Shown: piece by piece, positions 2,371 through 37,075 of the stretch | How positions within the stretch are numbered: position 1 is the stretch's first letter | Layout of the letters: every line of letters begins with the position of its first letter | NCBI GenBank assembly: GCA_017470145.1 | Contig: JAFUFB010000029.1 | Coordinates: forward strand, 8,766 to 72,765 | Length of the DNA stretch: 64,000 nucleotides | Reading direction: 5' to 3' | From: Clostridia bacterium | GTDB lineage: Bacteria > Bacillota > Clostridia > Christensenellales > Aristaeellaceae | The notes under the pieces: generated by a model | Seen by the model: only the letters and a program-made list of their open reading frames with translations | Database searches by the model: none | Told to the model about the DNA's origin: nothing | Translations under genes and position numbers: made by a program

Positions 2371-2452
2371 GCCTGCCTCCCTCGTCTTCCTTCCAGGAAT
2401 ATGCCAACCATTCTATTTTATGCGCAGATTGAAAATGGGTCAAGATTTTCTC

Positions 2453-2481
2453 TTGCATTTTGGCAGAAAAAACAGTATACT
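2453..2481 (+). promoter_or_regulatory. SigA-type promoter for SRP RNA
   Basis: TTGCAT(2453-2458)-N17-TATACT(2476-2481) directly upstream of the SRP RNA 5' end. Confidence 0.7.
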
Positions 2482-2488
2482 TCTTTCT

Positions 2489-2614
2489 GCCGCGAATGCG
2501 ATGACGATTGGGTCCCGTGCGATCCATCGGCGTGAACCCTGTCAGGTCCTGACGGAAGCAGCAGTAAGCGTTAGCTGGGTGTGCTGCGGGGTTGCCCGGT
2601 CTGAGCATTGGCGG
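2489..2614 (+). ncRNA. ffs: Signal recognition particle RNA, short (4.5S-like) form
   Basis: Domain IV core GAACCCTGTCAGGTCC-TGAC-GGAAGCAGCAGTAAGC; 5' ccgcgaatgc pairs with 3' gcattggcgg; promoter upstream and T-run downstream. Confidence 0.9.
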
Positions 2615-2711
2615 TTTTTTTGTTGTTTTTCAGTCGCGAGAGATGTATTGGTATGCTATACTGAGTTTTAGCCGCGCGGGGAAGCGCGGGAAAGCGAGGA
2701 GGAGTAAAAAG

Positions 2712-25725: not shown

Positions 25726-26103
25726 AGAGGAAGGAAAAGAGAGGCTGTTTTCCGAATGGGGAGGAGCTTCTTTTTTTATACGTTGATGGGAGGATTCCCT
25801 GCATAATGGGGGAGGAGGAATTTAGGCCGGAAATAGGAAGAAAAAAAGACAATGGATATGGATACGCTTGAAGAAGTGTTCAAAAAGAGTACTGAGAAAG
25901 TGTTGAAAAATAAGGGGTTAATAGAAACATGAATCTTCCTGAAAAGCGGGAAAACCCATAAATTAACGCGATTTGTTCAAAATATGGGCACGCATGAAAC
26001 GGTGTACTAAACTAATTTCAAAAAGCAAGATAAATGGCCGAGTTGGGGGATTGACAAGTCCAAAATTTTTCAAAATTTTTTTCAAAAAACCGGGTTTTCC
26101 CTA

Positions 26104-26132
26104 TTGATTTGCTTGACCAAGTCGTGTATAAT
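26104..26132 (+). promoter_or_regulatory. Promoter of the S10 operon
   Basis: TTGATT(26104-26109)-N17-TATAAT(26127-26132). Confidence 0.75.
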
Positions 26133-26139
26133 GCGACTG

Positions 26140-26290
26140 TTGTCTGTGTAGGGATGAAGGGGTAAGTTGCCGCCAGGCCAGGCGGGTAATTATCCTGGAC
26201 CAGCCCGTCAATCGGGCGACGGACTCGAAAAGCCGAACCCGGGGGAGCACCTGCGAACTCCCTCCAAAGCGGCAAAACGAGAACGAAATC
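26140..26290 (+). promoter_or_regulatory. Structured S10 (rpsJ) 5' leader RNA
   Basis: About 170-nt leader; ttgccgc(26167-26173)/gcggcaa(26269-26275) closes internal hairpins; GGGATGA...GTTGC start resembles Firmicute S10 leaders. Confidence 0.6.
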
Positions 26291-26307
26291 GAGGAGGTTA
26301 AAAGGTA

Positions 26308-31383: not shown

Positions 31384-31509
31384 GGCGTCTTCCGAGGGAT
31401 GCTCTCCCATTAGAAACCGGTTTGTCTGGGCCTTTGCAGACAGATGCCTGCCGGTTTCTTAATCGGAAGAATGGATTCCTCAAGATTGTAAATTAGGAGG
31501 AAAATCACA

Positions 31510-32247: not shown

Positions 32248-32793
32248 ATGGCTACCAGAATTAAGGAAAAATATCTGGCCGAGGCTGTTCCTGCTTTGCA
32301 GCAGAAGTTCGGCTACAAGAATGTTATGGAAATCCCGAAGCTGAGCAAGATCGTGATCAACATGGGCCTGGGTGATTGCAAGGACAATGCCAAGGCTATG
32401 GAGATGGCGGTGAATGAGCTGACCACCATCGCGGGTCAGAAGCCCATGGTGACCAAGGCGAAGAAGTCCATCGCGAACTTCAAGGTTCGTGAGGGCATGA
32501 ACGTCGGCGCCAAGGTGACGCTGCGCGGCGAGCGGATGGAAGAGTTCATGGACAAGCTGGTTTCCGTCGCGCTGCCCCGCGTGCGTGACTTCCGCGGCGT
32601 GAGCACCAAGGCCTTCGACGGCCGTGGTAACTACGCGCTGGGCATCCGTGAGCAGCTGCTGTTCCCCGAAATCGAGTATGACAAGGTAGAGAAGATCCGT
32701 GGTATGGAAATGATCTTCGTTACCACCGCCAAGACCGATGAGGAATGCATGGAACTGCTGAAGCTGCTGGGCATGCCTTTTGCCCAGGCGTAA
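32248..32793 (+). CDS. rplE: 50S ribosomal protein L5
   Basis: [23 protein letters not shown]. Confidence 0.98.
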
Positions 32794-32820
32794 GAACCAG
32801 GTTGAAGGAGGAAATTTAAA

Positions 32821-33006
32821 GTGGCTAAGCTGAGCATGAAACTCAAGCAGTCTCGTCCTGCCAAGTACTCCACTCGCGCTTATACCCGTTGCCGCATCTG
32901 CGGACGGCCTCACAGCGTGCTGCGGAAGTATGGCGTGTGCCGTATCTGCTTCCGTGAGCTGGCGTACAAGGGCCAGATTCCTGGCGTCAAGAAAGCCAGC
33001 TGGTAA
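32821..33006 (+). CDS. rpsN: 30S ribosomal protein S14, short Zn-binding type
   Basis: 61 aa, CRICGR...[12 protein letters not shown]; GTG start. Confidence 0.97.
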
Positions 33007-33240
33007 GCGAACCGACCGTCGCCCCAGTGGGGCGTTCGCCGGAGGCGAAAGGAAGGTAAGCGCATCAACCGAAACGAGCAGGGCCGCCGCCCCAAGGCAG
33101 CCATGCGAAGATTGAGGTTGCGGTAGTATCTATTTTAGATAGATACTTAGGTTTTGGTAACTCGTGGGAAGGCGAATATACAGATTCGAACCGCCTACGG
33201 ATCACAGAACAAGCGAGAAATCGAACTGTCTGTGAGATGA
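33007..33240 (+). promoter_or_regulatory. Structured rpsN-rpsH intergenic RNA, candidate uS8-binding leader
   Basis: Several hairpins; the last (33202-33235) has the CAAGC/GAACUG internal-loop geometry of 16S h21. Confidence 0.55.
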
Positions 33241-33261
33241 TTTTACAAGGAGGTCAAAACC

Positions 33262-33663
33262 ATGGTAGTCAATGATCCCATTGCCGATCTGCTCACTCGC
33301 ATTCGGAATGGACAGGTGGCTCGTCACGATTTTGTGACCGTGCCCGCCAGCAACACCAAGAAGGCCATCGCGAAGATTTTGCTGAACGAAGGCTATGTAA
33401 AGGCTGTTGATTTTATCGACGACGGCCTGCAGGGCGAGATCAAAATCACCCTGAAGTATCTCAACGGCAAACAGCAGCCCGTCATCGCCGGTCTGAAGCG
33501 GATCAGCAAGCCCGGTCTGCGGGTTTATGCCAAGTGCGACGAGCTGCCCAAGGTTCTGGGCGGCCTGGGCATCGCCATCATCAGCACCAGCAAGGGCCTG
33601 ATGACGGACAAGGAAGCCCGGAAGAACGATGTGGGCGGCGAAGTGCTGGCCTACGTCTGGTAA
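33262..33663 (+). CDS. rpsH: 30S ribosomal protein S8
   Basis: [31 protein letters not shown]. Confidence 0.98.
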
Positions 33664-33693: not shown

Positions 33694-34236
33694 ATGTCTC
33701 GAATCGGAAAGCTTCCGATCACTGTCCCCGCGGGCGTGACGGTTACGGTGGATGAAAACAACCTGGTGACGGTTAAGGGCCCCAAGGGAACCCTGTGCCA
33801 GCAGGTGAATCCGGTCATCACCGTGAAGCAGGAGGGCAATATTCTGACCCTCGAACGCCCCTCGGATGCCAAGCCCCACAAGGCCATGCATGGTCTGTAT
33901 CGGGCGCTGGTTCATAACATGGTCGTCGGCGTGACTGACGGCTTCACCAAGACCCTGGAGCTGGTGGGTACCGGTTATCGCGCCAGTGTCGAGGGCAAGA
34001 CGCTGACCATCAACATCGGCTTTAGCCATCCTGTTGTGCTGGAAGCGCCGGAAGGAATCACCTATGAGACCCCGAACCAGACCACCATTCTGGTAAAGGG
34101 CGCCAACAAGCAGCAGGTCGGCAACCTTGCCGCGGACATTCGCGCGATCCGGAAGCCTGAACCCTATCTGGGCAAGGGCATCAAGTATCACGATGAGCAC
34201 ATCCGCCGCAAGGAAGGCAAGGCCGGTAAGAAGTAA
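33694..34236 (+). CDS. rplF: 50S ribosomal protein L6
   Basis: MSRIGKLP, PEPYLGKGIKY. Confidence 0.98.
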   Translation: MSRIGKLPITVPAGVTVTVDENNLVTVKGPKGTLCQQVNPVITVKQEGNILTLERPSDAKPHKAMHGLYRALVHNMVVGVTDGFTKTLELVGTGYRASVEGKTLTINIGFSHPVVLEAPEGITYETPNQTTILVKGANKQQVGNLAADIRAIRKPEPYLGKGIKYHDEHIRRKEGKAGKK

Positions 34237-34254
34237 GAGAGGGAGTGACTGCAA

Positions 34255-34623
34255 ATGTTCAAGAAACGTGACCGGAACGAAGTTCGCGTGATTCGTCATG
34301 CGCGGGTCCGTAAAAAGATCAGCGGCACCCCTGAAATGCCGCGTCTGTCCGTCTACCGCAGCAACAAGCACATCCAGGCTCAGATCATCGACGACACCAA
34401 GGGTGTAACGCTGGTTTCCGCCAGCACCCTGGATGCCGCCCTGAAGGGACAGCTGGAAGAAGTGGACAAGAAGGGTGCTGCGAAGCTGGTCGGCAAGCTC
34501 CTGGGTGAGCGCGCTGTCCAGGCCGGCATCAAGAACGTGGTCTTCGACCGGGGTGGGTATGTTTATACCGGCCGTGTGGCCTCCGTGGCTGACGGCGCCC
34601 GGGAAGCCGGACTTGAATTCTGA
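34255..34623 (+). CDS. rplR: 50S ribosomal protein L18
   Basis: [27 protein letters not shown]. Confidence 0.98.
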
Positions 34624-34641
34624 TGAAGGAGGACTACGCAA

Positions 34642-35139
34642 ATGCCAAGGTTTGAACAGGAGAGCGAGTTCAAAGAGCGCCTGGTTTCCGTGAACCGCGT
34701 ATCCAAGACCGTGAAGGGCGGCCGCAACATGCGGTTCAGCGCGCTGGTCGTGGTGGGCGATGAAAATGGCCGCGTGGGCGCCGGCATGGGCAAGGCTGCC
34801 GAAATTCCGGAAGCCATCCGCAAGGCCGGTGAGGACGCCAAGAAGCATCTGGTGAACGTGCCGATCGACGGGACCACCATCCCGCATGAAATGACCGGAT
34901 ATTATTCCACCGCCAAGTCCGTGTTGATGCCCGCTCCGGAAGGAACTGGCGTGATCGCCGGCGGCGCGGCCCGTGCTGTGCTGGAAATGGCTGGCATCAA
35001 GGATATCCGGACCAAGAGCTATGGAACCAACAATCCCATTAACATGGTGAAGGCCACCTTAGAGGCGCTGAAGAAGCTCCGCAGCGCGGAGCAGGTCGCC
35101 AAGATGCGCGGCAAGACCGTGGAAGAGATTCTGGGATAA
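34642..35139 (+). CDS. rpsE: 30S ribosomal protein S5
   Basis: [19 protein letters not shown]. Confidence 0.98.
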
Positions 35140-35152
35140 GGAGGACGTAGAG

Positions 35153-35335
35153 ATGAAACTGAAGATTACTCTGGTGAAATCTCCGATCGCCAGCCTTCCC
35201 AACCACAAGGCCAACGTCCGTGCTCTGGGCCTGCGCAAGGTAGGACAGACCGTGATTCAGCCTGACAATGCCGCGATTCGCGGACAGATCTTCGCCGTGA
35301 AGCACATGGTGAAGGTTGAGGAAGTTGACGAATAA
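35153..35335 (+). CDS. rpmD: 50S ribosomal protein L30
   Basis: [15 protein letters not shown]. Confidence 0.96.
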
Positions 35336-35349
35336 AGGAGGAATACCCC

Positions 35350-35790
35350 ATGAAACTGCATGAACTGCATCCCGCTGAGGGGTCCACGACCGCGCAGAAG
35401 CGGCTGGGCCGCGGTACCGGTTCCGGTCTGGGCAAGACCTCCGGTAAAGGTCACAAGGGCGCCAAGGCCCGCAGCGGCGGCGGCAAGCGGCCCGGATTCG
35501 AAGGTGGTCAGATGCCCCTGTATCGTCGTGTTCCCAAGCGCGGCTTCACCAATATCTTCGGCACCGAGTATGCCGAGGTGAACGTGGAGCGCCTGGAGAT
35601 CTTTAACGATGGAGATACTGTCACGGTAGAAAAGCTGCTGGAAGCCGGAATCATCAAGAAGACCCTGGATGGCGTGAAGATTCTGGGCAATGGCGATCTG
35701 AGCAAGAAACTGACTGTGCAGGCTCAGAAGTTCACTGCCGGCGCGAAGGAAAAGATTGAGGCCGTTGGTGGGAAAGCCGAGGTGATCTGA
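35350..35790 (+). CDS. rplO: 50S ribosomal protein L15
   Basis: [35 protein letters not shown]. Confidence 0.98.
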
Positions 35791-35791
35791 C

Positions 35792-37075
35792 ATGATTGAA
35801 AACATCCGTAAGATGTGGAAAATCGGCGAGATCCGTAAGAAACTCATTTATACCTTTCTGATGCTGGTGCTGTACCGGCTGGTAGGCGTGATTCCCGCGC
35901 CCGGCGTTGACGCCGCGCGGGTTATGGCCTCCAACGGAACCAGCAATCTGCCTCTGTTGGAGCTGGTCAACATGATGACCGGTAACAACTTCAGCCAGAT
36001 GACAGTGATGGCCATGGGTATTACGCCCTACATCAATGCCAGCATTATTATGCAGCTGCTGACCATCGCGATCCCCGCCCTGGAGAGACTCTCCAAGGAA
36101 GAGGACGGCCGGCAGAAGATTAACCGGATTACCCGGTATGTCACCGTGGGTCTGGCTGCGCTGCAGGCCATTGGTCTGGTTCGCGGTCTGGGCTACATTA
36201 AGAGCGGCTGGCTGAATTACGTCCTGGTGGGCGTAACCATGGCCGGCGGTACCGCTCTGGCCATGTGGATTGGCGAGCGCATCACGGAAAAGGGAATCGG
36301 CAACGGCGTCAGCCTGCTGATCTTCGTGGGCATCATTTCCAACCTGTTCAACGGCATCGTTTCCGGTTTCACCACCGCGACGACCACCGGAACCACCTCT
36401 GGTTGGATCAATCTGTTGGTTATCATCGTGACCACCATCGTTATGACTGTGGTTGTCACCTTTGTGGAGCTGGGCGAGCGGAGAATTCCGCTGCAGATTT
36501 CCAAGCAGGTGAAGGGCCGTCGGGTTTACGGCGGACAGAGCACCCATATGAGCCTGAAAGTGGTCTCCGTTGGCGTGCTGCCCCTGATCTTCGCCTATAG
36601 CTTCCTGGCTTTCCCGGGCACTATTGCCCAGCTGATTAATCCCAATCCCCAGCCTGGATCCTTCACCTACTGGTGGGCCACCACCATGTACACCGGATCC
36701 GTCTGGTACATGATTATCAGCGCGCTGCTGATCGTCGCCTTCACCTTCTTCTACTCCAGCATCAGCTTTGATCCCAAACAGCAGGCTGAGCAGCTGCAGC
36801 AGCAGGGTGCGGTGATTCCTGGACAGCGCGGCAAGAACATCCGTCAGTATCTGCAGAACATCGTGAACCGGCTGAACCTGTTCGCGGCCCTGTTCCTGGC
36901 AGTGCTGAGCGCGGTGCCTACGCTGCTGCTCCGGGTGGCTGGCGTCAGCGTTCCTTTCGCGGCCAGCTCCATCCTGATCGCCGTGAGCGTGTCCCTGGAG
37001 ACCATCCGCACCCTGCAGGGTGAGATGAGCATCCGCGGCATCGACATGGATATGGACAACGTTGGATTTATGTAA
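35792..37075 (+). CDS. secY: Preprotein translocase subunit SecY
   Basis: MGITPYINASIIMQLL, WIGERITEKGIGNGVSLLIF; multi-TM; position between rplO and adk. Confidence 0.97.
   Translation: MIENIRKMWKIGEIRKKLIYTFLMLVLYRLVGVIPAPGVDAARVMASNGTSNLPLLELVNMMTGNNFSQMTVMAMGITPYINASIIMQLLTIAIPALERLSKEEDGRQKINRITRYVTVGLAALQAIGLVRGLGYIKSGWLNYVLVGVTMAGGTALAMWIGERITEKGIGNGVSLLIFVGIISNLFNGIVSGFTTATTTGTTSGWINLLVIIVTTIVMTVVVTFVELGERRIPLQISKQVKGRRVYGGQSTHMSLKVVSVGVLPLIFAYSFLAFPGTIAQLINPNPQPGSFTYWWATTMYTGSVWYMIISALLIVAFTFFYSSISFDPKQQAEQLQQQGAVIPGQRGKNIRQYLQNIVNRLNLFAALFLAVLSAVPTLLLRVAGVSVPFAASSILIAVSVSLETIRTLQGEMSIRGIDMDMDNVGFM

Follow-up and report, generated by a model that had tools for sequence, protein, structure and literature searches.

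The last 112 nt of the rpsN–rpsH spacer of a Clostridia bacterium of the Aristaeellaceae (positions 33150–33261) are probably a translational operator through which the ribosomal protein uS8 regulates its own synthesis, as judged from sequence comparison. The element carries two hairpins, H1 and H2, that resemble helix 21 (h21) of 16S rRNA. Mimicry of rRNA by S8's own operon is a textbook principle, and control of S8 synthesis by this kind of site mimicry has so far been described only in Escherichia coli and its kin. All positions refer to the window, that is, the whole stretch of 64,000 nt analysed (assembly GCA_017470145.1, contig JAFUFB010000029.1; this genome is coded G000), and the features mapped at the locus lie on its + strand. 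An earlier note on this DNA had proposed an S8-sensing leader at rpsH, and this proposal is supported by conservation of the core, covariation of the stems, presence in a single copy and a core descriptor that matches h21 alone in the rRNA operon of the genus relative G002.

The rpsN–rpsH spacer and its two halves

The upstream gene, rpsN (uS14; 32821–33006), was identified as an open reading frame and adjoins rpsH in relatives by tblastn. The product of rpsH (33262–33663), the predicted ligand and first regulated gene, matches solved uS8 chains (phmmer, best E 7e-50) and shows the RVY and STS motifs in the alignment. The genes downstream of rpsH (33694–37075) follow with gaps of 1–30 nt and would be co-regulated by analogy with the E. 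coli spc operon (available part of PMC3616713). According to the ORF map, the rpsN–rpsH gap measures 255 nt, the runner-up in the rpsJ–rpmJ block 126 nt and most others less than 31 nt, which bears out the coordinates given in the earlier note and its remark that the spacer far exceeds most gaps in the operon. The spacer folds with a z-score of -3.82, a stability equalled by none of 200 shuffles, and the Shine-Dalgarno (SD) sequence of rpsH, AAGGAGGU, lies at 33247–33254. Two other regions of the cluster, the 126-nt rpsQ–rplN gap (31384–31509) and the region upstream of rpsJ (25726–26307), show neither a gathering-score Rfam match nor an S8 core; elsewhere, window positions 2408–2650 contain a bacterial large SRP RNA (RF01854, 85 bits).

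The spacer consists of two unrelated halves, a dispersed repeat in the first 118 nt and a single-copy conserved RNA in the last 112 nt. The repeat (33007–33124) is structured, about 118 nt long and REP-like, and begins straight after the rpsN stop codon. By blastn, spacer nucleotides 3–120 have five further copies in the same genome (E 5e-20 to 6e-6), and an HMM built from five copies recovers six full-length (five of them the seeds) and eight partial copies there (nhmmer); many copies are also present in other genomes of the genus. It matches no Rfam family, and no S8-like core was found in the five copies checked. In G000, copies are located at window positions 33007–33124 and on contigs C29, C15, C22 (in tandem), C27, C17, C11, C4, C28 and C16. 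Two subtypes with a common 3' hairpin can be distinguished, the full copies are intergenic and sit in unrelated operons, and several lineages with the leader have acquired the repeat behind rpsN. It is missing from the 123–138-nt leaders of G049, G053, G061 and G034, four carriers that keep the conserved unit without any repeat. The segment 33007–33124 is hence an unrelated repeat insertion outside the leader. Its second hairpin (33034–33049) contains a word nearly identical to the 5' strand of H1, which can pair with the 3' strand of H1 in the descriptor search; the leader may have originated from it, or it may pose a risk of mispairing. Between the two halves lies an AT-rich, lineage-specific hairpin, AGTATCTA/TAGATACT (33125–33147), present only in G000 and its closest relative, G033.

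The 3' part behaves differently from the repeat: spacer nucleotides 143–255 have no significant second copy in the genome by blastn, and a covariance model of the leader gives one match there (E 2e-30). In a family-wide draw of 151 genomes, which included only three other members of the genus, this model matched two genomes, both times before rpsH. The several spacer hairpins listed in the earlier note are present, but those in 33007–33124 belong to the multi-copy repeat and the one at 33125–33147 is confined to two genomes; likewise, its caution that the spacer might be a multi-copy repeat holds for 33007–33124 only, the segment 33150–33261 being single-copy.

Twin helix 21-like hairpins

As delineated by alignment and RNAalifold, the conserved leader unit (33150–33261) runs from a 5' strand, GGUUUUGG-UAA-CUC, through H1, H2 and a linker to the SD sequence and the SD–AUG spacer. 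In 16S h21, the S8 determinants are the G597–C643 pair with position 641, the invariant A642 and the 595.(596–644) base triple (available part of PMC4176348). H2 (33202–33235; both-side changes in 6 of 13 pairs) reproduces this geometry with C33210–G33228 (594–645), A33211 (595), the pairs A33212–U33227 and G33213–C33226, unpaired A33224 and A33225, and C33214–G33223; its 3' end is located 11 nt before AAGGAGGU and 26 nt before the AUG. H1 (33164–33198; both-side changes in 7 of 13 pairs) is a second h21-like site, with A33170 (595), G33171–C33192 (596–644), G33172–C33191 (597–643), A33189/A33190 (641/642) and C33173–G33188 (598–640), and with position 594.645 (A33169.G33193) unpaired. The earlier note read the H2 hairpin, its core geometry and its distance of 11 nt from the rpsH SD exactly as found here, and the single h21 mimic it claimed is real, but it overlooked both H1 and the helix predicted to enclose the two hairpins. 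Its aggcg/cgcct hairpin is in the wrong register, as the region forms H1, and the U of CGCCU is a C in the other 9 of the 10 aligned leaders.

A descriptor of the h21 core finds two sites in the spacer, whereas dinucleotide shuffles of it yield one site in 4 of 2000 cases and two in none; over the 2.45-Mb genome it has 42 matches, two of them in the window and both of these in the rpsN–rpsH spacer. Conservation of the core was tabulated for 24 hairpins from 12 distinct leaders, with rows anchored on the 3' strand and on the G at 597; an unanchored alignment agrees except for one shifted row. The G597–C643 pair and A642 are kept in all 24 hairpins. Watson-Crick pairs are likewise universal at 596–644 (18 G–C, 6 A–U) and 598–640 (23 C–G, 1 U–A), position 595 is A in 22 hairpins (U in one, C in one) and position 641 is A in 23. 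Pairing at 594.645 is seen in only 9 of the 24 (in G000, in H2 and not in H1) and is absent from 15. From this pattern, we infer a 595.(596–644) base triple in the leader hairpins. The earlier note had staked its reading on the AAG/AACU loop being conserved in orthologous spacers; in the long spacers the core is kept, within stems that covary.

This covariation, which the earlier note had suggested looking for in related rpsN–rpsH spacers, was evaluated on 10 of the 12 distinct leaders, the same set used for the RNAalifold consensus (G034 and L181 were excluded because of their long insertions), with the pairs of the S8 site entered into the structure. Over 37 pairs and 369 alignment cells, 94% of cells pair, and 13 pairs show both-side changes, seven in H1, six in H2 and none elsewhere. 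The covariation score was reached by none of 500 shuffles and the pair count by two of 500, while slid controls gave at most five such pairs; coming from 10 related sequences, this covariation is to be read as support and not as a p-value.

In its 595 bulge, its 596–644 and 597–643 pairs, its unpaired 641/642 and its 598–640 pair, the leader core resembles h21 as described in the available part of PMC4176348; it differs in the short distal stem, in having mostly G596–C644 and C598–G640, and in the unpaired 594.645 of 15 of 24 hairpins. The comparison with the genus relied on the relative G002, as the seven leader genomes searched are without an assembled 16S gene. Its h21 has A596–U644, U641 and U598–A640, as opposed to the usual leader core with G596–C644 and C598–G640, and the leader core is thus not a letter-for-letter copy. 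Tolerance of these two pairs was judged from natural 16S variants: the H1-type core (595–598/640–644) occurs in h21 of Collinsella sp. AF23-2, where 594.645 is likewise unpaired, and the H2-type core (595–599/639–645) in h21 of Senegalimassilia anaerobia.

The departure from the 16S of the host genus at two pairs, and often at 594.645, together with a Micromonospora leader core that also differs from that organism's own 16S h21, would fit a real cis element that is bound by a different operon protein (uL6, uL18, uS5 or uL5), or one that has no ligand and only sets the ratio of rpsH to rpsN translation. We consider this unlikely, since A595 and the unpaired A641/A642 are conserved while the stems covary, a pattern for which structure alone would give no reason. 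In addition, the geometry maps to h21 as the sole match in the 6.3 kb rRNA operon of G002, and in that of G022 h21 is the best of three matches, the other two being weaker and in 23S rRNA. A CCGAAC word, known from loop C of 5S rRNA, is not conserved as such, position 599–639 being G–C in 37 and C–G in 35 of 80 hairpins.

Predicted action at the rpsH ribosome-binding site

If uS8 is the ligand, an excess of it would occupy one loop or both and thereby reduce translation of rpsH and of the genes to which rpsH is coupled. That it binds, that binding represses and that the effect is on translation are all inferred steps. No promoter-like or terminator-like site was found on the sense strand in 32700–33400, and compact leaders begin 4–13 nt past the rpsN stop codon; the element is thus intercistronic and most likely acts on translation. 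A transcription attenuator was rejected, as no intrinsic-terminator-like site precedes rpsH on the sense strand. Public RNA runs shared at best 0.15 of the stretch's words, and four runs taken at 80% likeness gave contigs of relatives, none of which spans the stretch.

Direct steric overlap of H2 with the SD sequence is not given, because H2 ends 26 nt before the AUG. In the RNAalifold consensus, H1 and H2 lie inside a helix, P1, that spans the rpsH ribosome-binding site (RBS). The predicted 5' side (33150–33163) comprises the P1 strand (33150–33157), an unpaired UAA (33158–33160) and an anti-SD CUC (33161–33163); the predicted P1/P1a 3' strand (33250–33261) is formed by the SD core and the SD–AUG spacer and is fixed in the carriers. 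The most likely route to repression, to which we give about an even chance once binding is granted, would be that S8-bound hairpins keep the junction shut, with P1 holding the SD and the SD–AUG spacer in a paired state, and prevent ribosomes that have finished rpsN from re-initiating, in the manner of uS7 at rpsL–rpsG in E. coli.

The UAA is invariant in all 10 aligned leaders, and 10 of the 11 P1/P1a pairs are invariant, none covaries and one pair is broken in two of the 10 sequences. Positions 33250–33261 are identical in all eight leader genomes, as against eight versions across the other 22 genus loci, and the SD–AUG spacer of the carriers is complementary to the P1 5' strand and differs from that of the sister genome G045 at four of eight positions. 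This fixed, complementary spacer is all that speaks positively for P1, and it counts as one evolutionary event only. The same 3' strand region can alternatively pair locally with 33238–33244. Folding with ViennaRNA, which models neither the S8 loop nor stacking or protein contacts and is weak evidence either way, reveals no clear thermodynamic switch at the RBS for 11 of the 12 leaders. Opening the RBS costs 7.5–10.6 kcal/mol in leaders against 8.5–12.0 in six leaderless relatives, masking the P1 5' strand lowers this cost in only 3 of 10 leaders, the free-state probability of P1 ranges from 0.01 to 1.0, and forcing the S8 sites shifts it much in only one of 12 leaders (G007, 0.02 to 0.92). 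The P1/P1a junction (33156–33163 with 33250–33255) also allows a third S8-like loop to be drawn on the SD, with permuted strands, C33161–G33253, a bulged A33251, unpaired A33159/A33160 and one extra U; such a loop is speculative.

The missing thermodynamic switch in 11 of 12 leaders would also suit a mechanism in which hairpin-bound uS8 affects cleavage or decay of the mRNA, or its transcription, and does not block rpsH initiation; a precedent is E. coli S8, which retroregulates upstream spc genes by mRNA destabilisation (available part of PMC10931766). This is a slim prospect. Against transcription stands the sense strand free of promoter- or terminator-like sites, and the distance from C643 of H2 to the AUG, fixed at 36–37 nt in all 12 leaders, points to initiation, as does the hairpin of Actinomycetes loci that abuts the SD.

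Distribution, history and known operators

A survey of the genus covered 54 genomes, 39 of which gave an rpsH match. Eight of them carry the leader, in spacers of 123–296 nt (G000, G033, G032, G049, G053, G007, G061 and G034), while 29 of the 39 have short spacers (22 measured at 20–33 nt, seven taken from match coordinates), and G045 has one of 66 nt. A further genome, G047, with a 155-nt spacer and a single site, was excluded from the tree and the clade counts because its S8 is 67% identical, as against 90% or more across the genus; its contig (C69, locus L108) is probably foreign or misassigned. A metagenome scan added seven leader loci, four of them new sequences. In a tree of the contiguous rpsH–rplR region (37 loci), the eight carriers form one branch (100/100) that is sister to G045 and nested among short-spacer genomes and seven short-spacer outgroups. 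The leader thus marks one clade nested among short-spacer relatives, and the twin-site form was likely gained once and recently. Horizontal transfer of rpsH with its leader from afar is unsupported, as the rpsH–rplR region of the carriers nests inside the genus.

The h21 mimicry passed every sequence test run, but the reading of the earlier note has to accommodate the 29 of 39 genus genomes that do without a leader; these, together with a core that is degenerate in three of five long spacers of another genus, g5, indicate that the leader is dispensable. A substitute S8 site was sought in the S10–spc–alpha cluster of the short-spacer genomes G002 and G039, where the only matches read as coding sequence. 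A spacer made up of neutrally accumulated repeat insertions, resembling h21 by chance, would agree with the multi-copy nature of its 5' 118 nt and with the spacers of 12–48 nt in most relatives, but is very improbable, as the 3' unit occurs once per genome, is kept without the repeat in four genomes and covaries, two sites arose in none of 2000 shuffles and the hairpin recurs before rpsH in other phyla; covariation and single copy rule out a neutral repeat for 33150–33261, although it holds for 33007–33124.

Scans at the levels of order, class, phylum and GTDB were anchored on rpsH and are informative on sites placed there, not on placement upstream only. At the order level, 142 of 151 genomes matched, and spacers were measured for the 29 top loci and for 19 others picked because their matches were split or partial; among these, a long spacer with an S8-like hairpin is confined to g5, where two of five pass the descriptor. 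A loose pattern matched 37 of 401 genomes at the class level. It is present in 12 of 13 genomes of family f57, nine of these 12 passing the descriptor, as does one genome in each of two further families. At the phylum level, 17 of 401 genomes matched, and besides G000 itself one of 16 passes the descriptor (L327, whose h21 core is near-perfect and lies right against the SD). The GTDB scan, in which only the core letters before rpsH were fixed and stems left unspecified, returned at least 120 loci. Among the matches listed, 58 of 117 loci with a recovered rpsH pass the descriptor, including loci of Micromonospora, Actinoplanes, Blastococcus, Dactylosporangium, Collinsella, Eggerthella, Olsenella and Senegalimassilia, one Pyrinomonadaceae genome (Acidobacteriota) and one Oscillospiraceae genome; several Chloroflexota loci pass at a looser setting only. 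After sequence clustering of the matches listed, 20 of 45 clusters form stems, compared with 1.3 in shuffles (maximum 5 in 200). Single-site versions are thus placed before rpsH in further Clostridia, in Actinomycetes and Coriobacteriia and in one Acidobacteriota genome, and the two-site form was seen, among all loci examined, in this genus clade only.

The E. coli spc operator contains two bulged As (A8 and A9), a G12–C79 pair and an A80.(A81–U11) triple (Fu et al. 2013, available part of PMC3616713). This gammaproteobacterial operator and the leader share an h21-like loop in spc-cluster mRNA, matching the H2 core, as well as the predicted ligand and logic, and by this analogy the leader likely works in the same way. 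In contrast to the E. coli operator, which overlaps the rplE start codon and the L5 coding sequence with its strands swapped relative to h21 (same source), the leader is non-coding, keeps the h21 strand order, occupies the rpsN–rpsH spacer as a tandem pair and leaves rplE and rpsN upstream; it is outside the E. coli operator family in position, strand order and site number. At rplE, neither a direct nor a permuted S8 core was found in the window, G002, G039, G049 or G022. A second parallel is the E. coli str operon, where uS7 represses coupled translation at the rpsL–rpsG intercistronic site (available part of PMC10931766). There, too, an intercistronic rRNA mimic directly precedes the repressor's own gene, although protein and site differ and 97–184 nt are inserted between the rpsN stop and P1 in 5 of 11 leaders here. 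The r-leaders of Eckert and Weinberg (2020) are similar in being covarying RNAs before r-protein genes, several using rRNA mimicry, but in the available part of that paper (PMC7247131) S8 is the ligand, and rpsH the first gene, of none of the 20 motifs, and its Table S4 gives no S8 leader for Bacillus subtilis.

Regulation of spc outside the gammaproteobacteria is unknown according to the available part of PMC10931766. The main texts, as far as available, of PMC2965389, PMC11109978 and PMC8632094 do not mention rpsH, although an rpsH motif could appear in the supplement to PMC11109978. No description of an S8 leader before rpsH was found in the full-text literature, a body that leaves most subscription journals outside its coverage. 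In Rfam 15, nothing in the spacer reached a gathering score (best E 7.2 in 32950–33320), and the 15 homologous loci gave one unrelated match (E 0.21); this agrees with the earlier note, which knew of no named S8 leader at this position. The leader is a real, conserved and apparently undescribed candidate uS8 operator.

More tentatively, and in our view somewhat short of an even chance, uS8 autoregulation through an unpermuted h21 mimic before rpsH may represent an undescribed class of r-leaders that is widespread and has evolved repeatedly (Clostridia, another Bacillota lineage, Actinomycetes, Coriobacteriia, Acidobacteriota and probably Chloroflexota), in which this clade would recently have gained twin sites for two adjacent uS8 molecules, and perhaps a third, permuted S8-like loop on the SD, for a sharper response than a single site allows. 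The RNA offers several lineages a concrete and testable answer, down to named nucleotides. This is also an r-leader that appeared within one genus, with close leaderless relatives as natural controls, in a tandem layout absent from the other leaders examined.

Other loci differ in how the hairpin is placed. In Actinomycetes (L189, L208, L245, L268 and others), the S8-like hairpin closes directly onto the SD, which, as read from sequence, is the clearest geometry for translational repression among the loci examined. Family f57 (L152–L163) has a single-site leader family-wide, in which the distal stem is internally branched and a conserved UCCG might pair to the SD. A second layout (L229, L258 and L108, the last from G047) combines one S8-like hairpin, a small GC hairpin and GGTAACTC just before the SD, a word that also occurs at the 5' end of the leader described here. 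A GTAACTC anti-SD layout was found in one of 90 genomes of another order, that of f57, and that one is without an S8 core. Very long rpsN–rpsH spacers with many hairpins occur in L165 (G222; 527 nt), L248 (469 nt) and L229 (408 nt), and the descriptor found no S8 core in L165 and L248. Finally, the leader of L279, a contig titled Akkermansia muciniphila, resembles those of Coriobacteriia, and the contig is a probable misassignment.
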